A DNA stretch of 32,000 nucleotides, taken from Delftia acidovorans NBRC 14950 (lineage in GTDB: Bacteria; Pseudomonadota; Gammaproteobacteria; Burkholderiales; Burkholderiaceae_C). Both the position numbers and the translations under genes were made by a program. Every line of letters begins with the position of its first letter. The stretch's first letter is position 1. The DNA lies in NCBI RefSeq assembly GCF_001598795.1, contig NZ_BCZP01000007.1:180001-212000 (forward strand), in the 5' to 3' direction. Below, one piece after another: positions 22,736-32,000 of this stretch. A model generated the notes under the pieces. That model was not told where the DNA came from, ran no database searches, and was given only the letters and a program-made list of their open reading frames with translations.

Positions 22736-25351
22736 TCAGCGCCCGGCCGCCTGCCGCAGGATGGAAGGAATCACGCCGCCGCTGCGCAGCAGCCCGGCCT
22801 CCAGCTGCGTCTCCACGGCGGCCGTGGCCTGCAGCGCCTGCACGCTGCCATCGCCGCGCAGTATGCGCACGGGCACGGCACAGCGCGGCGCCAGGGCGTC
22901 GGACGGTGCATCGATCTCGATACGGTCGCCCGGCTGTAGCGCCAGTTCCTGCGGCCCCATGCCCGCAGGCAAGCGCAGCGGCACGATGCCCATGCCGATG
23001 AGGTTGGAGCGGTGGATGCGCTCGAAGCTCAGGGCCAGCACGGCACGTATGCCCAGCAGGCGCTGGCCCTTGGCGGCCCAGTCGCGCGAGGAGCCCGTGC
23101 CGTAGCGCTCGCCGGCCACCAGCACCACGGACTGGCCCGCCTTGCGGTAGCGCTGCGCGATGTCCCACAGCGGCGCTATCTCGCCCGACGGTGCATGCAG
23201 GCCATGGGCCACGGGGGCACCGGGCGCCAGCAGGTTCTTCAGCGTCTTGCTGTGAAAGGCCGCCCGCACCATCACCTCCCAGTTGCCGCGCCGCGACGCG
23301 AAGACGTTGAGATCACCCCGGTCGTCGCCGCGCTCCACCAGGAAATCGGCCACCAGGCTGTCGGGCGGGATGGCGCTGGCCGGCGAGATATGGTCCGTGG
23401 TGATGTCGTCGCCCACCACCAGCAGCGGGTGGGCCTGGTAGCGGCCCAGCTGGCTGCCCTCGGACAGCGCGGCAAAGGGCGGGCGGCGCAGCGCGGTGGA
23501 CCGCGCGTCCCAGGGAAACAACGGCCCCTCGGGCGCCTTCAGCGCATGCCAGGCCGGGTTGAGCGTGGCCCGCGCGAAGTCGCGGCCGAAGTCCTGCGGG
23601 TGCAGGCCCAGCGCCAGCGCCGCCTGGACTTCCTCGCGGGTGGGCATGAGGTCGGCCAGGAACACGGGCCGGCCATCGGCCAGGCGCTGCACGGGCTCCA
23701 GGCGCAGGTTGCGGGCCGCGTCGCCGGCCAGACCGAAGGCGATGACCAGGGACGGCGACATGATGAAGCTCAGCTCGATGTCCGGATGCACGCGGCCCGG
23801 GAAATTCCGGTTGCCCGACAAAATGGCCACGGCCTTGGCCTGGCCGGCGCGCTGGGCCTGGCGCACCGGCTCTGTCAGCGGGCCGGGGTTGCCGATGCAG
23901 GTGGTGCAGCCGTAGCCCACGATGCCGAAGCCCACGGCCTCCAGGTCCTGCAGCAGCCCGGCGCGCGCCAGATAGGAGGCAGCCGCCGGCGAGCCCGGTG
24001 CCAGCGATGTCTTGACCCATGCGGGGACCTTCAGCCCCAGCGCCCGCGCCTTGCGCGCCACCAGCCCGGCGGCGACCAGCAGCGCGGGATCCGAGGTATT
24101 GGTGCAGCTGGTGATGGCGGCCAGCGCCACGGCATGGCGCGGCAACCCGGCCTGCGCGCCGGACGCAACAAAGCCCACGGCCTGCAGCGCGCGGGCGCTG
24201 TCGCCATAGTCCAGCAGGTCCTGCGGGCGGCGCGGACCGGCAATGTGCCAGCCCACGGTGTCCAGGTCGATCTCGATCTGGCGTGTGTAGCGCGGCCGGG
24301 CCTGCGGATCGAACCACAGGCCCTGGGCACGCATATAGGCCTCGACCAGGGCGACGCGCTGTGGGCTGCGGCCCGTGGCGCGCAGGTAGTCAAGCGTCTG
24401 GCCATCGACCGCGAAGTAGCCCGTGGTGGCGCCGTACTCGGGCGCCATGTTGGCCACCACGCTGCGCTGGCCCGCCGTCAGCGTGGACACGCCGGGGCCG
24501 AAGTACTCGACGAACTCGCCGGCCACGCCCAGGGCGCGCAGCCGCTGGGTGGCGACCAGGGCCAGGTCGCTGGCCTGCACGCCGGGGCGCAACGCGCCGG
24601 TCAGCCGCACGCCGATGACATCGGGGATGCGCAGCATGGTGGGCATGCCGAACATCACGGTCTGCGCCTCCAGCCCGCCAACGCCCCAGCCCAGCACGCC
24701 GATGCCGTTGACCATGGGTGTGTGGCTGTCCGTGCCCAGCATCATGTCGGGCACGGCCCAGAGCCTGCCGCCGCGCTCCTCGGTGGTCACCACGGTGGCC
24801 AGCTGCTCCAGGTTGATGGTGTGCATGATCCCCGTGCCCGGCGGGTGGATGGTCACATGGGCCAGGGCCCTGGAAGCCCAGCGCAGGAAGCGGTAGCGCT
24901 CGGCATTGCGCCGTATCTCGTGCTCCAGGTTGGCCTGGGCGGCGCCCGGCGCTGCATAGGCCTCCACGGCCAGCGAGTGGTCCACCGACACATCGACGGG
25001 CAGCACCGGATTGAGCACGGCCGGATCCACGCCCTCTTCGTGCAGCGCGTCGCGCATGGCCGCGATGTCGACCAGCGCCGGCGTGCTGGTGGTGTCGTGC
25101 ATGAGCACGCGGCCCGGCTGGAAGGCGATCTCGGCCTCGCTGCTGCCGTGATCCATCCAGGCCCGCAGGGCAGCCACGGCAGCGTCCCTTTCCTGCCCCT
25201 CCATGTGGCGCAGCACGTTCTCCAGCAACAACCTGAGCACCACGGGCAGGCGCGGCAGGCACTCGCCCAGCACGCCCGGCACATCGGCGGCGTGGTAGCG
25301 GACTCCGTCCAGTTCAAGGACGCGGGAAAAGGGGTTCTCGGTGTTTTCCAT
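22736..25351 (-). CDS. Aconitate hydratase family protein (AcnA-type, 871 aa)
   Basis: Start at MENTENPF (25351). Contains LLENVLRH, MHDTTSTPALVD, PGTGIMHTINLEQLA and GTDSHT. The Fe-S ligand cysteines are present in ITSCTNTS and YGCTTCIGN. A swivel domain is present. Confidence 0.9.
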   Translation of the reverse strand: MENTENPFSRVLELDGVRYHAADVPGVLGECLPRLPVVLRLLLENVLRHMEGQERDAAVAALRAWMDHGSSEAEIAFQPGRVLMHDTTSTPALVDIAAMRDALHEEGVDPAVLNPVLPVDVSVDHSLAVEAYAAPGAAQANLEHEIRRNAERYRFLRWASRALAHVTIHPPGTGIMHTINLEQLATVVTTEERGGRLWAVPDMMLGTDSHTPMVNGIGVLGWGVGGLEAQTVMFGMPTMLRIPDVIGVRLTGALRPGVQASDLALVATQRLRALGVAGEFVEYFGPGVSTLTAGQRSVVANMAPEYGATTGYFAVDGQTLDYLRATGRSPQRVALVEAYMRAQGLWFDPQARPRYTRQIEIDLDTVGWHIAGPRRPQDLLDYGDSARALQAVGFVASGAQAGLPRHAVALAAITSCTNTSDPALLVAAGLVARKARALGLKVPAWVKTSLAPGSPAAASYLARAGLLQDLEAVGFGIVGYGCTTCIGNPGPLTEPVRQAQRAGQAKAVAILSGNRNFPGRVHPDIELSFIMSPSLVIAFGLAGDAARNLRLEPVQRLADGRPVFLADLMPTREEVQAALALGLHPQDFGRDFARATLNPAWHALKAPEGPLFPWDARSTALRRPPFAALSEGSQLGRYQAHPLLVVGDDITTDHISPASAIPPDSLVADFLVERGDDRGDLNVFASRRGNWEVMVRAAFHSKTLKNLLAPGAPVAHGLHAPSGEIAPLWDIAQRYRKAGQSVVLVAGERYGTGSSRDWAAKGQRLLGIRAVLALSFERIHRSNLIGMGIVPLRLPAGMGPQELALQPGDRIEIDAPSDALAPRCAVPVRILRGDGSVQALQATAAVETQLEAGLLRSGGVIPSILRQAAGR

Positions 25352-25361
25352 AGCTGATATT

Positions 25362-25387
25362 TTGCATTTTGAATTTCTAAAATGCAA
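25362..25387. promoter_or_regulatory. Inverted repeat TTGCATTTT-N8-AAAATGCAA in the divergent aconitase/Bug promoter region; candidate GntR operator
   Basis: Read directly in the 97-bp AT-rich intergenic region. The left arm starts 11 nt from the aconitase start codon. Confidence 0.4.
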
Positions 25388-25448
25388 TCGAACGCCTCAT
25401 CTCGCTTTCCCTGAAACCCCGGCTAAAAGGCCGCCAAGGAGTTTTGAC

Positions 25449-26453
25449 ATGTCCGCTCCCTCCCGCCGCAGCTTGCTGCGCAACCTGGGCACCGCGCTGC
25501 TCGCCGGCCTCATCAGCCTCATCGGCAGCCTGCCCGCTGCGGCCCATGACGCGCCGCAGCGCAGCATCACTCTCGTGGTTCCCTTCACGGCAGGTGGCGG
25601 TGTCGACGCCATGGCCCGGCTGCTGGCCGAGCGGCTGCGCGTGACGCTCAAGCAGCCGGTGGTGGTGGACAACAGGCCCGGCGCCAGCGGCATGCTGGGC
25701 GCAGGGGCCGTGGCACGCGCGGCGGGCGACGGCCACACGCTGCTGCTGGGCTCGGCCGGCGAAACCGCCATCGCCCCGCTGGTGCACCAGGGCCGCATGC
25801 CCTACCAGCCGTCCCGCGACCTGGCGCCCCTGACCCTGGTCACGCGCGTGCCCAACGTACTGGTGGCCTCGCCCGGCCTGCCGGCCAGCAACATCGATGA
25901 ACTGGTGCGCCTGGCCAAGGCCAGCCCCGGCAAGCTCGGCTACGCCACCAGCGGCGTGGGCAATCCCCAGCACCTCAATGGCGAGCTGCTGCAGTCGCTG
26001 GCCGGCATTCGGCTGAACCACGTGCCCTACCGGGGCGCGGCCAACCAGCTGGTGGACGTGTCCTCGGGCGTGGTCGAACTGGCCTTCGTCAGCTACGCGG
26101 GGGCCGCGCCCTTCATCAAGAGCGGCCGTGTCAAGGCGCTGGCGGTGACTTCAGCGCAGCGCGCCAGCTTCGCCCCCGGCATTGCCGCCATTGCCGAGTC
26201 GACGGGCCTGGCCTCCTACGACCTGGACAACTGGTTCGGCCTCTTCGCGCCCGCCTCCACGCCGCCGGCCGTCCAGGCGCGGCTGCATGCGGCGGTGGTC
26301 AATGCGCTCAAGGACCCCGCGCTGGCGCAGCGCCTGCGCGAACTGGGCGGCGAGCCCGCTCCCATGTCCCAGCAGCAGTTCAGGGACTTCATCGCCGCCG
26401 AGACCGCCAGGTACGCCGCCATCGTGACCTCGGCCCGCATCGTGGCCGAGTGA
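25449..26453 (+). CDS. Bug/TctC-family periplasmic substrate-binding protein
   Basis: AAGGAG at 25436-25441. Signal peptide MSAPSRRSLLRNLGTALLAGLISLIGSLPAAA. Motifs VPFTAGGGVD, DNRPGASG and VPYRGA are present. Confidence 0.9.
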   Translation: MSAPSRRSLLRNLGTALLAGLISLIGSLPAAAHDAPQRSITLVVPFTAGGGVDAMARLLAERLRVTLKQPVVVDNRPGASGMLGAGAVARAAGDGHTLLLGSAGETAIAPLVHQGRMPYQPSRDLAPLTLVTRVPNVLVASPGLPASNIDELVRLAKASPGKLGYATSGVGNPQHLNGELLQSLAGIRLNHVPYRGAANQLVDVSSGVVELAFVSYAGAAPFIKSGRVKALAVTSAQRASFAPGIAAIAESTGLASYDLDNWFGLFAPASTPPAVQARLHAAVVNALKDPALAQRLRELGGEPAPMSQQQFRDFIAAETARYAAIVTSARIVAE

Positions 26454-26510
26454 GGGCGCGCGCCCTTTCCCGGCATTTGCCTTTCCCTTCAGAAAACCAC
26501 AGGAGACGAC

Positions 26511-27494
26511 ATGCAGCTTCATCCCGCGCTGGCCGCCACGGCCGCCGCCATCCTGGTCCTGGCTTCGGCCACGGCCCGATCCCAGACCGCCCCCGACGGC
26601 TACCCGGTCCGCGCCGTCACCATCGTCGTGCCCTTCGCGGCCGGCGGAAACACCGACGTCAAGACCCGGCTCGTGGCCAGGCAGCTGGCGCAGATACTGG
26701 GCCAGCCCGTGATCGTGGACAACAAGCCCGGCGCCAGCGGCAACATCGGAATGGAGTTCGTGGGCCGCGCCGCAGCCGACGGCTACACCATCGCCATGGG
26801 CAGCTTCGGGCCGCTGGCCGTCAACCCCTGGATCTATCCCAGGCTCAACTTCGATCCCAAGACCTTTGTCCCCATCATCCTGCTGGAGAAAAGCCCACTG
26901 GTGCTGGTCACGCCCGCCGACAAACCCTATCGCAGCGTGGCCGATGTGGTGACGGCCGCCAAGGACAGGCCGGGGCAGCTGAACATCGCCAATGCAGGGC
27001 CGGGCGGCGCGCACCATCTCTCGGCCGAGCTTTTCGAGGCGGCGGCAGGCCTGGACATGGTCGGCGTGCCCTTCAAGGGCGGTGGCCCCGCCGCCACCGC
27101 CCTGCTGTCGGGACAGGTGGACCTGATGTTCGAGCAGACCGGTGCGGCAGCGCCCTCCATACAGGCGCGCAAGATCCGCGCGCTGGGTGTGACCTCGGCA
27201 CAGCGCCTGGCCATGCTCCCTGACGTCCCCACCTTCGCCGAGTCCGGCTTCCCCCAGGTCACCGTCTCCAACTGGATGGGCTATGTGGCGCCCAAAGGCA
27301 CGCCGCCCGAGATCGTGGCCCGGCTCAACAAGGCGTTCGCCAAGGCCATGGAGCACCCGGAAGTCCGGGAACGCATCGTCTCCCAGGGCAACGAGTTCGG
27401 CGGCGGCAGCAGCCAGGAGTTCGCCGCCTTCATCGACAGCGAAGCCGCCAAGTGGGGCCGGCTGGTGAAGGAGCGCGGAATCCGAAGGGACTGA
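26511..27494 (+). CDS. Bug/TctC-family periplasmic substrate-binding protein (second, paralogous)
   Basis: AGGAGA lies upstream. Signal peptide MQLHPALAATAAAILVLASATARS. Motifs VPFAAGGNTD, DNKPGASG and VPFKGG are present. Confidence 0.9.
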   Translation: MQLHPALAATAAAILVLASATARSQTAPDGYPVRAVTIVVPFAAGGNTDVKTRLVARQLAQILGQPVIVDNKPGASGNIGMEFVGRAAADGYTIAMGSFGPLAVNPWIYPRLNFDPKTFVPIILLEKSPLVLVTPADKPYRSVADVVTAAKDRPGQLNIANAGPGGAHHLSAELFEAAAGLDMVGVPFKGGGPAATALLSGQVDLMFEQTGAAAPSIQARKIRALGVTSAQRLAMLPDVPTFAESGFPQVTVSNWMGYVAPKGTPPEIVARLNKAFAKAMEHPEVRERIVSQGNEFGGGSSQEFAAFIDSEAAKWGRLVKERGIRRD

Positions 27495-27526: not shown

Positions 27527-28672
27527 CTATCCCTCATTGACCAGCAACGACAGTGCATGCGCCTCGGTAGGCAAAGGCACATCCCAGCGCTGCAGCAGGC
27601 TGAGCAGGGCCGCGTTGGTCAGCGTGGTGTCGCGCGCGCGGTTGCGGGCCAGCAGGGTTGGGCGGCTGGCTTCCAGGTGCACGAGTTCCACGCGGGCGCC
27701 GTAGGCCAGGCACAGGTCCACGGTCTTGCCGCGCATCTGGCGCGACAGGTGGGTGGCATTCCAGACAAAGGGCTGGCCCGCGCGCAGCAGGGCCTTGGCC
27801 TTGTCCACGGCGTGGTGGGCGGCCGCGCCCTCGTTCTGGCCGTGGCGCAGGCCCAGCTCCGTACGCGCATCGTCGAAGGAGACCACGGGCAGGTCGCCAT
27901 GGTGGGCGGCCACCCAGGTGTTCTTGCCGCTGGCCGGCAGGCCGCACATGACGATGGCGCGCGAGCCGGCCTGCTCGTGCAGCGCATAGTCGGGATGCAG
28001 CTGCGCGCCGCGGAAGTAGCGCACCGCCGTCTCGGCCGAGGCAAAGCGGCGTGGCGTGCGTAGGCAGCCCTCCTCCAGCGCGAACTCGCGCACCAGTTCG
28101 ATGTTGACCAGCACGGACGCAATGTCCGGGCAGATGCGCCCGCGCATGTCGGCGCGCGCCAGCAGCGTGAGCAGGTGCAGGTCCGTCTGCCAGGACAGCT
28201 CGCGCACGATGAACTCGGGCGAGAGGCCGCGGCGCGAATCGGCAAAGGCGAAGAACGGCACCTGGTGCACGGCGATCAGCCGGCAGATGGCCTCGCGCTG
28301 GTCCACGGGCGCGCCGGCTTCCCAGAGCATGAGCCGCGCATCCAGCGCACCCCGGCGCGAATGGCCGGGCTGGCCGATGCGGCCGTCCTCGCCCACCACG
28401 GTGGTCGAGCACTTGGCCACGTCGTGCAGCAGCGCGGCCAGGAAGACCGTCTCGCGCTCGGTGGCGGTGAGCGCCGCATGGCCGGGGTCGGCCAGCAGTT
28501 CGCGCACCACCATCTGCGTGTGCGTCCAGACATCGCCTTCGGCGTGGTAGACCGGGTCCTGCGGCGTGGTTTTGGCCTGCTCCAGCTGGGGGAAGGCGGC
28601 CAGGCAGGCCGCGAAGTCGGGGTCGGCGCCGGGCTGCGGCACCAGGGACTGGATCTGTTTCCAGTTCGTCAT
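27527..28672 (-). CDS. HD-domain phosphoesterase fused to a P-loop polynucleotide-kinase-like domain (HD-Pnk architecture)
   Basis: 381 aa, with AAGGAGA upstream of the ATG. The N-terminal HD domain has YHAEGDVWTHT (His43) and LLHDVAK (His83-Asp84). The C-terminal kinase has Walker A GLPASGKNT (244-252), the phosphoacceptor Asp context VVSFDDAR and the lid Arg context NATHLSRQMRGK. Confidence 0.8.
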   Translation of the reverse strand: MTNWKQIQSLVPQPGADPDFAACLAAFPQLEQAKTTPQDPVYHAEGDVWTHTQMVVRELLADPGHAALTATERETVFLAALLHDVAKCSTTVVGEDGRIGQPGHSRRGALDARLMLWEAGAPVDQREAICRLIAVHQVPFFAFADSRRGLSPEFIVRELSWQTDLHLLTLLARADMRGRICPDIASVLVNIELVREFALEEGCLRTPRRFASAETAVRYFRGAQLHPDYALHEQAGSRAIVMCGLPASGKNTWVAAHHGDLPVVSFDDARTELGLRHGQNEGAAAHHAVDKAKALLRAGQPFVWNATHLSRQMRGKTVDLCLAYGARVELVHLEASRPTLLARNRARDTTLTNAALLSLLQRWDVPLPTEAHALSLLVNEG

Positions 28673-28707
28673 GGAAATCTCCTTGCGATGGGTCTGCGCT
28701 GCAGGCC

Positions 28708-29562
28708 TCACCAGCTTTTTGAAATATCGGCCGCAAAGATGTCTGCGCCTTCGCGCAGCCCGTTGGGGACGATGGGCCGCTCGCTGTGGTGCGAACCCGA
28801 GTCGAGGATGACCTGCACGAAGTCCGGCCGCACGAACTTGTAGCGCGCCACGGTCTGGCCGTCCTCCTCCACCTTGAGGTAGAGGCCTTCGGCCAGCTCG
28901 GAGCCGTCGGTCTGCCGCCAGCACAGCGGCAGGTCCAGCTTCTGGCGGGCCACCACCTGCTCGAAGGCCTGGCGCCAGCGCGCGCTGCGGCCCAGCGAGG
29001 GGGCCAGCAGCGCCAGCAGGTCCTGCATGCGCCGGGGCGCCGCCCCGCTGTAGAGCACGGGCACCGAGACCACGGGCACGCCGGCCAGCAGAGCATGGCG
29101 GCGCGGCGTGTCCAGGAAGCACTGCGCCGAGCGGTCCCAGATGTCGAACTCGCAGAACCAGTGCGGCAGCGCGTCGTAGAACAGCGAGTGCTTGGCATAC
29201 ATCCACTCGCCAAACACCTGGTAGCGGTCGTCCAGCAGGGACAGCAGCGCGCCCTCGTGGGCCTGGGCCCATTGCTTGAAGAGGTTGAACTGGCGCTCGC
29301 GCCCGCCGGGCCGCTCGCTGTCCAGGTAGTGGCCGCGCGACTGCAGCAGCAGCTGGCCGTCGCCGGCAAAGCTCAGCGCGGCGTTGGCGCCGTCGAGCTT
29401 TTCCTCGACGACGATGTGCCGGCCGGCCAGCCGCTCATAGGGCACGGCGTCGTCCTGGTCACCGGCCTGCAGGCGCGAGCCGCGCAGGTGCGGCGTACGG
29501 GGGTACTTGAGGATCTCGATGCTCGAAAGAAAACGAGGGCCTGGAGAAATGGATGGGGTCAT
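28708..29562 (-). CDS. ATP-dependent RNA ligase family protein (Rnl2-like nucleotidyltransferase domain only)
   Basis: 284 aa from MTPSISPG. The N-terminal region contains KYPRTPHL. Motif I is EEKLDGAN (Lys55), motif III-like is VFGEWMY, motif IV-like is EGLYLKV and motif V-like is ARYKFVR. It lies 35 nt upstream of the HD-kinase gene on the same strand. Confidence 0.8.
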   Translation of the reverse strand: MTPSISPGPRFLSSIEILKYPRTPHLRGSRLQAGDQDDAVPYERLAGRHIVVEEKLDGANAALSFAGDGQLLLQSRGHYLDSERPGGRERQFNLFKQWAQAHEGALLSLLDDRYQVFGEWMYAKHSLFYDALPHWFCEFDIWDRSAQCFLDTPRRHALLAGVPVVSVPVLYSGAAPRRMQDLLALLAPSLGRSARWRQAFEQVVARQKLDLPLCWRQTDGSELAEGLYLKVEEDGQTVARYKFVRPDFVQVILDSGSHHSERPIVPNGLREGADIFAADISKSW

Positions 29563-29973
29563 GTCGTGCTTTCCGAAAACGATGCAGCACCCCACGGCGC
29601 CATGCCATGGGGCGGGAAAAGCCGACGACGACGCCAGGCGCCGCAATGCAGGGGATGCAGCGACAGCGCGGCCTGGCCCGTGGTGGCCGGGCCGGCAGGC
29701 TGTCGAAGGGGAAGATGGCAGGACTGTCGGCGCCGTCCGCAAACCGGACGGTCAGCCGCAAGCCCTCAAAAGGCCACGCACCGCAGCGCACACGCAAAAG
29801 ACATCCGGGGCAAGGCCAGGATCAGCGTGTGACGAAGTCGTTCAGCAGGAAGCTGTGCGGCGGGGCATGGTGCACCTCGAAAGGGTGAGGGTGGATGGGA
29901 GGGGTGCGAGTCTATCGCCCGTTGGCCCGCAGGCACAAGCGGCTGCGCACCATGCCGGGCCGATTGTTGGCTG

Positions 29974-30831
29974 CTAGCCACGCACGGCGGACTTGAAGGC
30001 GGCGCCCAGCGCATCCAGCGCCGCGCGCGGCCGGCCTTCGCGCACGCGGGTGTGCAGCAGCACGGGCAGGCGCGGCAGCGTGGGCAGGCCCAGGCGCGGG
30101 CCCACGTCCACGGCGCCCAGGGCCAGCATGCGCGGCGCCAGCGCGGCCACGCCCAGCCCCGCCATGACGGCGGCCGAGACAGCGGCTACGCCGCCGCCCA
30201 CGAACACCTCGGTCCACGGCATGCGCGCCGTATCCAGCAGTTGCCCGGCCATGGCGCGCACGCCGCAGGGCTCGGCCAGCGTGGCCAGCGGCAGGGGCTC
30301 GCCCGCGCGGTGCTGCCAGCCGGGCGCGGCAAACCAGCCGAAGGGCTCCTCGGCCAGCAGCTCGCCGTCGTCACGCCCGGCATGCGTGCGAACGATCACC
30401 GTGTCGTATTCGCGCCGGTCAAACCCCTGCAGCAGCGGGCCGGACGATGCGATGCGGATGTCGATCAGCAGCTGCGGGTCCTGCGCATTCATGCGGGCGA
30501 TCAGTGCGGGCAGCTCAGGCCCGGCCACGTGGTCGCTGATGCCGATGGTCAGCCGCTGGCGCGTGCTGACGGCCAGCGCCAGTGCGCGCTCATGGGCCTG
30601 CAACAGTTCGCGCGCATGGGGCAGGAAGTCGGCGCCCAGCGCGGACAGCTGCACATGGCGCGGCGTGCGCTCGACCAGCCTGCAGCCCAGCCGCTGCTCC
30701 AGCCGCTTGAGCTTGAGGCTGACGGCAGCCTGCGTGGTCTGCATGGCTTCGGCCGCGCGCGTGAAGCTGCCCAGGTCCGCGATGTGCACGAAGCCTTGCA
30801 CGGCATCCAGGTCCAGAGGTCGTTGAATCAT
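29974..30831 (-). CDS. LysR-family transcriptional regulator
   Basis: HTH region LDAVQGFVHIADLGSFTRAAEAMQTTQAAVSLKLKRLEQRLGCRLVERTPRHVQLSALG plus an effector domain. It is divergent from the tautomerase gene. Confidence 0.9.
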   Translation of the reverse strand: MIQRPLDLDAVQGFVHIADLGSFTRAAEAMQTTQAAVSLKLKRLEQRLGCRLVERTPRHVQLSALGADFLPHARELLQAHERALALAVSTRQRLTIGISDHVAGPELPALIARMNAQDPQLLIDIRIASSGPLLQGFDRREYDTVIVRTHAGRDDGELLAEEPFGWFAAPGWQHRAGEPLPLATLAEPCGVRAMAGQLLDTARMPWTEVFVGGGVAAVSAAVMAGLGVAALAPRMLALGAVDVGPRLGLPTLPRLPVLLHTRVREGRPRAALDALGAAFKSAVRG

Positions 30832-30842
30832 TTCAATCCATT

Positions 30843-30860
30843 ATTACTGATATCAGCAAT
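30843..30860. promoter_or_regulatory. Near-perfect 18-bp palindrome ATTACTGATATCAGCAAT (core CTGATATCAG), LysR-box-like, in the divergent promoter
   Basis: Read directly. It begins 12 nt from the LysR start codon, in an AT-rich patch, and has T-N11-A-type dyad symmetry. Confidence 0.45.
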
Positions 30861-30941
30861 CATGGCTTTTCAAAATATCTGGCGCGGCCTACCTTCGAGG
30901 CTCCCACAACGCAAAGCAACGCAACGCAAAGGAGCCACACC

Positions 30942-31325
30942 ATGCCCATGACCCGGATCAACATGCGCGCCGGCAAGTCCCCCGCCTACCGCCAGGCCAT
31001 CTGCGACAGCCTCTACCGCGCCATGCGCGAAACCTTCAACGTGCCGGAGGACGACCAGTTCATGACCATCACCGAGCATGACGGCGACAACTTCCGCTAC
31101 GGCGCCTCCTACCTGGGCGTGGCGCGCAGCGACGATCTGGTGCTGGTGCAGCTCACGGTCAGCAACACCCGCAGCCTGGAGCAGAAAAAGGCGCTGTTCA
31201 GCCGCATCGCCGAGCTGCTGGTCGAAAGCCCCGGCCTGCGGCCCGAGGACGTGTTCGTCAACCTGGTCGAGGTGGACAAGGAGAACTGGTCCATGGGCCA
31301 CGGGCTCGCGCAATACGCAACTTAA
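30942..31325 (+). CDS. Tautomerase-superfamily protein (4-oxalocrotonate-tautomerase-like, long form)
   Basis: 127 aa. Starts MPMTRINM, with Pro directly after the initiator Met (catalytic Pro1 hallmark). AAAGGAG at 30928-30934. The pattern ...ICDSLYRAMRETFNVPEDDQF...ENWSMGHG fits the Tautomerase_3 type from memory. Confidence 0.75.
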   Translation: MPMTRINMRAGKSPAYRQAICDSLYRAMRETFNVPEDDQFMTITEHDGDNFRYGASYLGVARSDDLVLVQLTVSNTRSLEQKKALFSRIAELLVESPGLRPEDVFVNLVEVDKENWSMGHGLAQYAT

Positions 31326-31361
31326 GACACGCGGATCGGCGCAACACCCACAGCGCCGCGC

Positions 31362-32000
31362 TCAGGCCGGCGCCGCCAGCGCCGCCACGAATTGCTGACC
31401 CACGGCGGTAATGATCTCGGCGCGCGCCGCCGTGCGCAGCTGCACCAGGGCGATCTGCCGGCTCTCGGCAGTCTGGGCAAGGGGCAGCACGCGCAGGCGC
31501 GGGTCGCCCTCCCAGCCATGCCGCGCCAGATTGGGCAGCATGGCCACGCCCATGCCGTCGCGCACCAGCTCCACGATGGTCTCGATGGAGTTGAGCTCCA
31601 GGAACTCCTGGGGCTTGGCGCGCAGGCGGCGCAGCGTGCGCTCCACCAGCTCGCCCGTGTGCTCGGTGCGGTCGAAGCGGATGAAGGGATAGCGCTCCAC
31701 CATGTCGGCGGGCGCCGCGGGCCGGGCGGCGCGCGGCGCCAGCAGCACCATGGACTCGGCATACAGCGGTGTCCAGACCAGCGAGGGGCGCTTGATGGCC
31801 GGCTTGTAGACCACCACGGCCGCGTCCAGCTCATGGTTCTCCACCTGGGCGATCAGCCGGTTGGACTTGCCCGAGACCACATGCAGGTCCACCGCCGGAT
31901 GGTGGCGCTTGAGCTCCAGCGTGGCGCGCACCAGCTGGCTCAGCGCCGAGACGATGGAGCCGAACTGCACGGTGCCGGCCAGCGGTGCGTCGGCCCGCGT
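31362..32000 (-). CDS. LysR-family transcriptional regulator, effector-binding part; N-terminus lies beyond the window
   Basis: The frame is open to nt 32000 (TRADAPLAGTVQFGSIVSALSQLV...). It shows the LysR substrate-binding pattern (LELKRHHPAVDLHVVSGKSNRLIAQVENHELDAAVV...LNSIETIVELVRDGMGVAMLP). Confidence 0.85.
   Translation of the reverse strand, partial: TRADAPLAGTVQFGSIVSALSQLVRATLELKRHHPAVDLHVVSGKSNRLIAQVENHELDAAVVVYKPAIKRPSLVWTPLYAESMVLLAPRAARPAAPADMVERYPFIRFDRTEHTGELVERTLRRLRAKPQEFLELNSIETIVELVRDGMGVAMLPNLARHGWEGDPRLRVLPLAQTAESRQIALVQLRTAARAEIITAVGQQFVAALAAPA

Follow-up and report, generated by a model that had tools for sequence, protein, structure and literature searches.

A putative RNA end-healing and ligase operon in Delftia acidovorans and its candidate translation-coupled leader

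What does an operon that pairs a minimal polynucleotide ligase with an end-healing enzyme repair, and what switches it on? The question is raised by a 32,000-nucleotide (nt) stretch of the Delftia acidovorans NBRC 14950 genome (contig NZ_BCZP01000007.1, positions 180,001 to 212,000; hereafter the window), which encodes such a ligase and, behind it, a fusion of an HD phosphoesterase with a P-loop polynucleotide kinase (HD-Pnk). A first-pass annotation, made from the letters alone, had proposed that the pair converts 3'-phosphate or cyclic-phosphate and 5'-OH ends into ligatable ends and seals them. This is the published working model for the ligase/HD-Pnk operon class. The pairing itself has been described in Deinococcus (PMC1997131) and Runella (PMC6097658), and the Delftia locus is a further proteobacterial example. 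The reading that we favor, and hold to be probable as a whole, is that of a two-gene end-healing and ligase operon that targets RNA more likely than DNA and whose expression is controlled by its leader.

The ligase and HD-Pnk genes

Both genes lie on the minus strand, ligase first, 35 nt apart (Table 1). The HD-Pnk ATG is preceded at 7 nt by AAGGAG, and the ligase ATG at 6 nt by its own Shine-Dalgarno (SD) sequence, GGAAAG. A terminator scan found no terminator-like site between the genes, and strict terminator matches across the window were at chance level only. The 284-amino acid (aa) open reading frame (ORF) carries KLDG (Lys55), FGEW, EGLYLKV and YKFVR, and the 381-aa ORF 35 nt downstream carries His43, His83-Asp84 and GLPASGKN, all at the positions first reported for them. 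Homology, motif conservation and confident fold predictions rule out chance ORFs in GC-rich DNA, and the gene pair is far beyond chance. Homologues measure 278-292 aa (ligase) and 377-393 aa (HD-Pnk); longer overlapping ORFs of 344, 581 and 611 aa are upstream extensions or shadow frames and not the genes.

Profile searches with the Pfam RNA_ligase, HD and AAA_33 models all gave matches. The ligase matched RNA_ligase (PF09414) with an E-value of 4e-37; the HD match in the second protein, at 22.8 bits against a 22-bit cut-off, was just over the gathering score. Nucleotidyltransferase motifs I (KxDG), III, IIIa, IV and V follow one another in the correct order, which places the ligase in that superfamily. 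Their residues K55, D57 and G58 (I), E119 in FGEW (III), F139 and D140 in EFD (IIIa), E225 and G226 in EGLYLK (IV), and R240 and K242 in R240-Y-K242-FVR (V) show little or no variation among 46 homologues, and the same holds for an N-terminal KYPRTPHL. NCBIfam has no model for the ligase, and a PDB sequence search with both proteins returned nothing useful, with no sequence-close solved structure for the ligase.

The AlphaFold2 (AF2) model of the ligase (predicted local distance difference test, pLDDT, 89.9) shows one nucleotidyltransferase domain, interrupted by a helical insert (aa ~176-222) and ending in a short tail. Its nearest solved folds were NgrRnl (top), T4 Rnl2, archaeal Rnl3 and REL1, followed by tRNA ligase and Rnl1; template-modeling (TM) scores reached only ~0.45, and DNA ligases ranked below RNA ligases. 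The C-terminal helical domain of the Rnl2 family, on which its nick sealing depends, is not present, and the alignment to 2hvq spans the N-terminal domain alone (TM 0.43). The N-terminal OB-like domain of Rnl5-type ligases is not present either, and ~48 residues, bearing KYPRTPHL, stand ahead of motif I. The model and the motif positions thus bear out the absence of both domains, as first proposed; the idea of a distinct and unstudied minimal clade does not hold, for the clade already has two studied members, in Deinococcus (PMC1997131) and Runella (PMC6097658). A PF09414 protein with the nucleotidyltransferase domain only, an N-terminal KYPxxPHL and a gene adjoining HD-Pnk, the Delftia ligase is of the LigB/DRB0100 type.

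The HD-Pnk protein aligns end to end with its Deinococcus radiodurans counterpart (30% identity, E 8e-21), and the HD-then-kinase order ascribed to it is correct. Its AF2 model (pLDDT 91.8) consists of an all-helical HD half and a P-loop half. The former matched the 'tRNA processing enzyme' entries 3wfo-3wfs, which we take to be class II CCA/A-adding enzymes; the latter best matched mammalian PNKP and the Clostridium thermocellum Pnkp kinase (TM 0.70-0.72 on target). The structural comparisons that the first-pass annotation had called for thus yielded confident models with RNA-ligase, PNKP-kinase and 'tRNA processing enzyme' folds. NCBIfam gave weak matches, those of the HD half being to HD domains of CCA-adding enzymes, and its bacter_Pnkp match was limited to the kinase region and far under the cut-off.

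The metal ligands of the HD domain, H51 (and H43), H83-D84, H104 and D175, are conserved across phyla. The kinase half carries the signatures S265-x-D267-x-x-R270, N305-A-T307, R314 and R343-N-x-x-R347, of which S-x-D-x-x-R and R-N-x-x-R are signatures of polynucleotide kinases, comparable with motifs of CthPnkp. K250 of Walker A, the D267-x-x-R270 general-base motif, R314 and R343/R347 are invariant, in keeping with a polynucleotide kinase, in which a lid Arg is expected as well. Residues H83, D84, K87, H104, D175, G249, K250, S265, D267, R270, R297, T307, R314 and R347 are invariant across phyla.

We compared the operon with that of D. radiodurans, which we found on megaplasmid MP1 by tblastn of plasmid records. 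On one strand, MP1 carries DRB0100 ('RNA ligase family protein', 210 aa), DRB0099 (TIGR02452, PARG) and DRB0098 ('AAA family ATPase', the HD-Pnk). The two operons are alike in having the ligase first and HD-Pnk last on a single strand. The ligases, DRB0100 (LigB/DdrP) and that of the window, are homologous (E 2e-12) and share the KYPxxPHL, KLDG and GE motifs. The window operon differs in that it has no PARG gene, its ligase is longer by two insertions (aa ~76-95 and ~176-222), its Walker A is GKN instead of GKS, and it is preceded by a leader with a short upstream ORF (uORF), whereas the Deinococcus operon is radiation-induced. DraRnl ('RNA ligase (ATP)'), first named as the genomic neighbor of the Deinococcus enzyme, is encoded in the same megaplasmid region, three genes off the HD-Pnk operon and on the opposite strand (locus L001, 5509-8212 and 10347-11375). 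The HD-Pnk homology therefore stands, but the operon partner is DRB0100/LigB and not DraRnl. DraRnl and NgrRnl (Rnl5) have an adenylyltransferase fold in common with the window ligase, which lacks the N-terminal OB-like domain of Rnl5; the similarity to DraRnl is marginal (BLASTP E 2e-4) and confined to the nucleotidyltransferase region.

Enzymes of both relatives have been studied. A K40-AMP adduct forms on DRB0100; whether by itself or combined with DRB0098 and DRB0099, the protein joined neither nicked DNA nor RNA-on-DNA, single-stranded RNA or duplex ends, and DRB0098 is a 5'-kinase (PMC1997131). In Runella slithyformis, as in the window, the ligase gene lies directly upstream of an HD-Pnk gene with the same domain order; that cluster includes Tpt1 and a methyltransferase-HIT gene, neither of which the window has, and the ligase forms ligase-AMP and seals no tested substrate (PMC6097658). 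Kinase and phosphoesterase activities have been measured only for the HD-Pnk of Runella (PMC6097658) and for that of Deinococcus. The healing half of the proposal is thus strongly predicted by homology to characterized enzymes and can be retained. The sealing half cannot be retained as it was put: two homologues adenylylate and join no tested substrate.

Is the pair conserved as a pair? A scan of one genome per species, with an HD-Pnk profile built from an 8-sequence alignment, found an HD-Pnk relative in at least 569 species genomes. We examined the 8 kb flanks of the best 80 of these, which, going by record titles, represent about ten phyla (loci are cited by our L numbers). A PF09414-type ligase lay within 8 kb of HD-Pnk at 75 of the 80 loci, and at 67 it immediately preceded HD-Pnk on the same strand, with less than 600 nt between them; the co-conservation on which the first-pass annotation had staked its proposal was thus found. 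The ligase-HD-Pnk order is also annotated on plasmids of Pseudomonas, Bosea, Chondrinema and Deinococcus taeanensis, which with D. radiodurans makes five phyla. In 2017 Munir and Shuman reportedly noted HD-Pnk homologues from 11 bacterial phyla, frequently sharing an operon with a putative ligase, and our census agrees with this. Outside Delftia, the pair has flanking genes that bear no relation to those of the window; other Delftia genomes keep the upstream flank alone, with its LysR and tautomerase genes. Because the two genes stay together while their flanks differ between genera, the pair behaves as a self-contained module.

The same 80 loci place the Walker A sequence (G244-LPASGK250-N251 in the window) in context. 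The residue after the lysine was Asp at 50 loci, Asn at 19 and Ser at 3; the other 8 were mis-scored, the regular expression having caught another site. The GLPASGKN sequence was thus read correctly, and its Asn, taken at first for a departure, is not one, GKD or GKN occurring at 69 of the 80 loci. GKN was typical of Burkholderiales and GKD of other phyla. Thr mostly comes next, reminiscent of the GKGT loop of adenylate kinases. The HD-Pnk of Spirosoma, of the same family as Runella, has GKD, which suggests that the active Runella kinase has a non-Ser Walker A as well.

There are at least three ligase subtypes: a long one (~280 aa), which is the majority form and includes that of the window, the short DRB0100 form, and a Cytophagales form to which the window ligase is ~23% identical (as read from Chondrinema and Spirosoma, taken as proxies for Runella). 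Both enzymes that failed to seal in vitro appear to belong to minority subtypes; we infer the assignment of the Runella ligase from Chondrinema and Spirosoma.

The leader upstream of the ligase gene

The 411 nt that separate the ligase gene from the LysR gene upstream are conserved in Delftia, Acidovorax, Diaphorobacter and Comamonas; the flanks are not. Comparison of the window with Comamonadaceae loci L009, L010, L015, L100, L101 and L103-L113 revealed a promoter-like TTGnnn-N17/18-TAnACT, read from the alignment and conserved in position in all four genera. Upstream of the operon, a scan for the strict sigma-70 consensus detected no promoter. Neither a LexA box nor a sigma-54 promoter was found there, and window-wide counts of both were at or under chance.

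The whole leader folds with z = -3.55. Near its 5' end, all Comamonadaceae copies keep the SD, start, length and stop position of a uORF, with a GAGG-N6-ATG spacing and TGA or TAA as stop. A 127-nt folded element overlaps the uORF; 90% of its cells were paired, versus 24-56% when the partners were slid, and its inner hairpin has 6 covarying pairs. A covariance model of the element matched only Comamonadaceae ligase leaders and not the leaders of other families. An exact pattern taken from the element occurred on 11 metagenome contigs, upstream of the same gene pair wherever this could be judged: the ligase lay 215-270 nt downstream in 9 of the 9 contigs with enough downstream DNA, and HD-Pnk came next in 7 of the 7 that were long enough. 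At the 3' end of the leader, the block CGUCGUCGGCUUUUCC is common to the window and to the Achromobacter and Burkholderia leaders, and in the minimum free energy (MFE) fold of the window the GUCGUCGUCGGCUUUUCC block is paired with the ligase SD and AUG.

The same architecture, in other sequence, stands ahead of the ligase in Pseudomonas, Achromobacter, Bordetella, Janthinobacterium, Undibacterium, Burkholderia, Pectobacterium, Chitinimonas, Variovorax and others (loci L003 and L012-L045; for example L028:6961-7125, L014:6905-7135 and L024:6879-7100). These uORFs have 8-9 codons: an SD is followed by GTG, by CCC, CCT or TCT, by 5-7 more codons, and by TGA or TAA, never TAG, with peptides such as MPYASQHA, MSAIRHYA, MPRFFAITC and MPANIRPFA. 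Just 1-4 nt separate the end of the stop from (G/A)CCGACGAC, which pairs with GUCGUCGG(C/U) 60-245 nt downstream, ~10-45 nt before the ligase start. After the GUCGUCGG strand, most lineages have a U/C-rich tract paired with the ligase SD.

We scored these leaders with a motif-free detector, which requires an SD, a uORF of 7-10 codons and an 8-base-pair (bp) helix reaching from at most 5 nt after the stop to at most 75 nt before the ligase start. It scored 26 of 38 beta- and gammaproteobacterial loci but none of the 34 that belong to other phyla, and among 1520 dinucleotide shuffles it scored 3; a motif-guided version added three loci. Over 20 loci, eight positions of the long-range helix were paired in 19-20, and three of these show compensatory changes (AU 7, GC 7, GU 5; CG 17, UA 2, UG 1; GC 17, AU 2, GU 1). 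For nine Pseudomonas-type leaders RNAalifold predicted the long-range helix together with an anti-SD:SD hairpin, with covariation.

The leader with its uORF was not found described; it is the new feature here and matches no Rfam family (neither the window nor 8 related loci gave a match reaching the gathering score, and the leaders gave none at E <= 5). There is a precedent for such an arrangement. The Pseudomonas aeruginosa operon of PA5471 (RtcB-family) and PA5470 (PrfH) is induced by ribosome-targeting drugs via a translated 13-codon leader, PA5471.1, ~250 bp upstream (PMC3516279). In both cases a short ORF lies a few hundred nt upstream of a repair-type operon. The uORFs described here have 8-9 codons instead of 13, encode another peptide and precede other genes. 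On this analogy the leader is probably a translation-coupled regulator of the cassette and may sense translation stress.

A more specific mechanism can be put forward tentatively, as a possibility and no more. A ribosome on the 8-9 codon uORF, whose stop abuts the helix, would control access to the ligase ribosome-binding site (RBS), so that the operon of Beta- and Gammaproteobacteria would be switched on by its translated leader and the cassette would be an RNA repair system responsive to translation damage. If so, the leader would be a simple reporter for the natural trigger and substrate of a LigB-type ligase.

Table 1. Features of the ligase/HD-Pnk operon and its leader (positions in the window)
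Feature	Position	Strand	Details
Promoter-like site and ~340-nt 5' leader	29563-29938	minus	-35 TTGTGC 29933-29938; -10 TAGACT 29909-29914
Folded RNA element, 127 nt	29764-29890	minus	Locally folded, overlaps uORF; MFE z = -2.85; Comamonadaceae-specific
uORF, 8 codons, MPRRTASC	29842-29878	minus	SD GAGG 29875-29878; ATG 29866-29868; TGA 29842-29844; supported by conservation
3' leader block	29569-29632	minus	GUCGUCGUCGG 29622-29632; U-rich anti-SD CUUUUCC 29615-29621; ligase SD GGAAAG 29569-29574
Ligase gene, 284 aa	28708-29562	minus	ATG start; PF09414, nucleotidyltransferase-only, ATP-dependent polynucleotide ligase family
Catalytic Lys55 codon (KLDG)	29400-29398	minus	AAG
Intercistronic spacer, 35 nt	28673-28707	minus	HD-Pnk RBS AAGGAG, read from sequence
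HD-Pnk gene, 381 aa	27527-28672	minus	Bifunctional end-healing enzyme by homology
HD phosphoesterase domain (aa ~36-200)	28073-28567	minus	H43, H51, H83-D84, H104, D175; Pfam HD E 1e-4
His83-Asp84 codons	28426-28421	minus	
P-loop 5'-OH polynucleotide kinase domain (aa 238-381)	27530-27961	minus	AAA_33 E 2e-19
Walker A	27920-27943	minus	K250 codon 27925-27923
Flanking genes	22736-27494, 29974-31970		

RNA or DNA as the target

The proposed mechanism follows the heal-then-seal logic of phage T4 Pnkp with Rnl1 or Rnl2. By homology to two characterized orthologues, the C-terminal P-loop domain of HD-Pnk would phosphorylate 5'-OH ends, and the N-terminal HD domain would remove 2',3'-cyclic, 3'- or 2'-phosphates, leaving 5'-PO4 and 3'-OH ends. 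The ligase would self-adenylylate on Lys55, a step known from two homologues, and would then activate and join the healed ends, probably with the help of a specific substrate or partner. The target, more likely than DNA, would be damaged RNA of the translation machinery, for instance tRNA or rRNA that ribotoxins or stress have broken. The leader would act after transcription initiation, its 8-codon uORF being coupled to structures that occlude the ligase RBS, and the operon would thereby respond to disturbed translation, by analogy with PA5471.1.

Like the T4 system, the window pairs an ATP-dependent ligase, whose fold is related to that of Rnl2, with a kinase of the same P-loop Pnk clade as that of T4 Pnkp. 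T4 Pnkp, however, has an N-terminal kinase and a C-terminal DxDxT acyl-phosphatase, whereas the window protein has an N-terminal HD domain and a C-terminal kinase. The window ligase also lacks both the C-terminal domain of Rnl2 and the tRNA-binding domain of Rnl1, and sealing, proven for the T4 enzymes, is only predicted for its family. The bacterial Pnkp-Hen1 cassette heals and seals too; its Pnkp fuses kinase, calcineurin-type phosphatase and ligase, and the ligase needs Hen1. The window has no methyltransferase, and some relatives have one upstream of the ligase.

The neighbors of the pair in those relatives bear on the target. RtcB was encoded within 8 kb at 7 of the 80 loci (L024:4604-6738, L027, L034, L053, L058, L069:5217-6973 and L072), and at 5 of the 80 it was RtcB-PrfH; at L069 RtcB, PrfH, ligase and HD-Pnk are contiguous and co-oriented. 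At 8 loci a class I S-adenosylmethionine (SAM) methyltransferase of ~210-235 aa lay directly upstream of the ligase (L046:6476-7186, L051, L058:6683-7303, L066, L071, L073:6383-7084, L083 and L085:6427-7122), in Alphaproteobacteria, Acidobacteriota, Myxococcota, Chloroflexota and one Enterobacterales metagenome-assembled genome. It is weakly like the methyltransferase domain of Hen1 (NCBIfam E ~1e-5; PDB 3jwg/3jwi E ~5e-5), and its best matches are other methyltransferases. No PARG homologue was found at the 80 loci.

With moderate confidence we favor RNA over DNA, which is plausible because the Pfam family and the fold neighbors of the ligase are RNA ligases, the HD domain is of the kind found in CCA enzymes, no LexA box was detected, and RtcB-PrfH and methyltransferase genes are neighbors in relatives. 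We weighed this against the possibility that the cassette mends DNA breaks with 3'-phosphate and 5'-OH ends, such as those left by oxidation or radiation, its ligase being a back-up DNA ligase of the LigB type that depends on accessory proteins. The Deinococcus operon is indeed radiation-induced, its HD-Pnk is needed for radiation resistance, and HD-Pnk mutants are sensitive to mitomycin C as well as to ionizing radiation; in the hands of one group, DRB0100 ligated DNA only when DRB0098 and PprA were present (PMC6300522). The reference list of PMC6097658 also gives the Runella HD-Pnk as a 'DNA/RNA end-healing enzyme', NCBI names the Delftia sp. HK171 orthologue of the ligase (97% identical) 'DNA ligase', and a gene for an SOS-response-associated peptidase (SRAP) lies near the pair at two loci. 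But the ligase groups by fold and Pfam family with RNA ligases ahead of DNA ligases and has no OB or DNA-binding domain, the upstream region has no LexA box, the RNA-repair genes RtcB-PrfH and a methyltransferase recur as neighbors instead of Ku, LigD or recombination genes, the HD domain is similar to the one in CCA-adding enzymes, and other laboratories did not find DNA ligation. We therefore regard DNA repair as an unlikely function.

A second alternative concerns sealing itself. The ligase may need an unusual end, be it a 2'-PO4 of the kind used by fungal and plant tRNA ligases, an ADP-ribosylated end or another modified one, or it may stop at 5'-adenylylation and so tag or protect the ends that HD-Pnk prepares. 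This would fit the two homologues that self-adenylylate and seal nothing tested, and enzymes of modified ends do join the pair in relatives: Tpt1 and methyltransferase-HIT in Runella, the SAM methyltransferase at the 8 of 80 loci, and in Deinococcus DRB0099, a PARG able to strip ADP-ribose from 5'-phosphate ends (PMC11833690). Against it, all ligase motifs are conserved, including those for steps 2 and 3, and most loci, the window included, have the two genes only. Moreover, the HD domain of the Runella enzyme reportedly removes 2'-, 3'- and cyclic phosphates; such a domain would erase a 2'-PO4 mark. We rate this alternative a little below DNA repair.

The pair is found on plasmids and megaplasmids; 11 predicted viral contigs (IMG/VR) carry a ligase relative, 4 of them with an adjoining HD-Pnk (L089, L090, L092 and L099), and the PHROGs phage RNA ligase and polynucleotide kinase families match both proteins weakly. 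PADLOC returned no system match, only sub-threshold matches of the HD motif to Cas3 HD models. That the cassette is a mobile plasmid or phage counter-defense or immunity module, undoing nuclease attack by a host or competitor instead of serving housekeeping repair in Delftia, would agree with these occurrences and with a pair that stays together while its flanks change between genera, but it is very improbable for a window copy that is chromosomal, has the GC content of the host (0.70), no integrase or transposase nearby, a conserved upstream flank within Delftia and no PADLOC family match, and it differs from an RNA repair operon in ecology, not in mechanism.

Several points weigh against the RNA end-healing and ligase operon that we prefer. 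Sealing has been seen for no member of the ligase family, DRB0100 and the Runella enzyme having both failed. The sole genetic phenotypes, the sensitivity of Deinococcus mutants to ionizing radiation and mitomycin C, point to DNA damage, and one report describes DNA-ligase activity of DRB0100 in the presence of DRB0098 and PprA (PMC6300522). No RtcB, PrfH, methyltransferase, toxin or defense gene lies near the cassette in the window. As for the leader, the long-range helix of the window's own family is only ~5 bp (ACGAC/GUCGU) and is not scored by the detector; we infer translation of the uORF only from the conservation of its sequence, and the regulatory logic is a proposal.

The class is very widespread, with its at least 569 species genomes, and yet its ligase has never been observed ligating. 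Our results offer three handles on this problem: the dominant ~280-aa subtype, that of the window, differs from both enzymes that failed the tests; in relatives the pair recurs beside RtcB-PrfH ribosome-repair genes and a methyltransferase; and the beta- and gammaproteobacterial uORF leader, fused to a reporter, could reveal the inducing stress.

Surroundings of the pair

The flanks of the operon in the window comprise an aconitase-family gene, two TctC (Bug) receptor genes, two LysR regulator genes and a tautomerase gene (Table 1). We rejected the TctC, aconitase, LysR and tautomerase genes as parts of the system: they are not conserved beside the pair outside Delftia. In D. tsuruhatensis the downstream flank has DJ-1/PfpI and AraC-type genes instead. 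The GC content is even (~0.70) across the window, the cassette included.

A blastn search of complete Escherichia coli genomes, its query taken from Pectobacterium, did not find the cassette. At four HD-Pnk loci with full flanks (L042, L055, L075 and L076) no ligase was recognizable within 8 kb; the HD-Pnk ORF of L055 starts with a low-complexity extension of ~300 aa, perhaps an ORF-calling artefact. In Miltoncostaea, the gene that precedes HD-Pnk, for a 285-aa 'hypothetical protein', does not encode a ligase.

The two SRAP genes lie 1-3 kb from the pair in unrelated loci, on the P. aeruginosa plasmid pF051 (L003:7907-8548) and in Spirosoma (L064:4323-5066), and may be a coincidence. In Spirosoma the ligase gene is moreover immediately preceded by a DUF4385 gene, and a phage-type integrase gene lies downstream.

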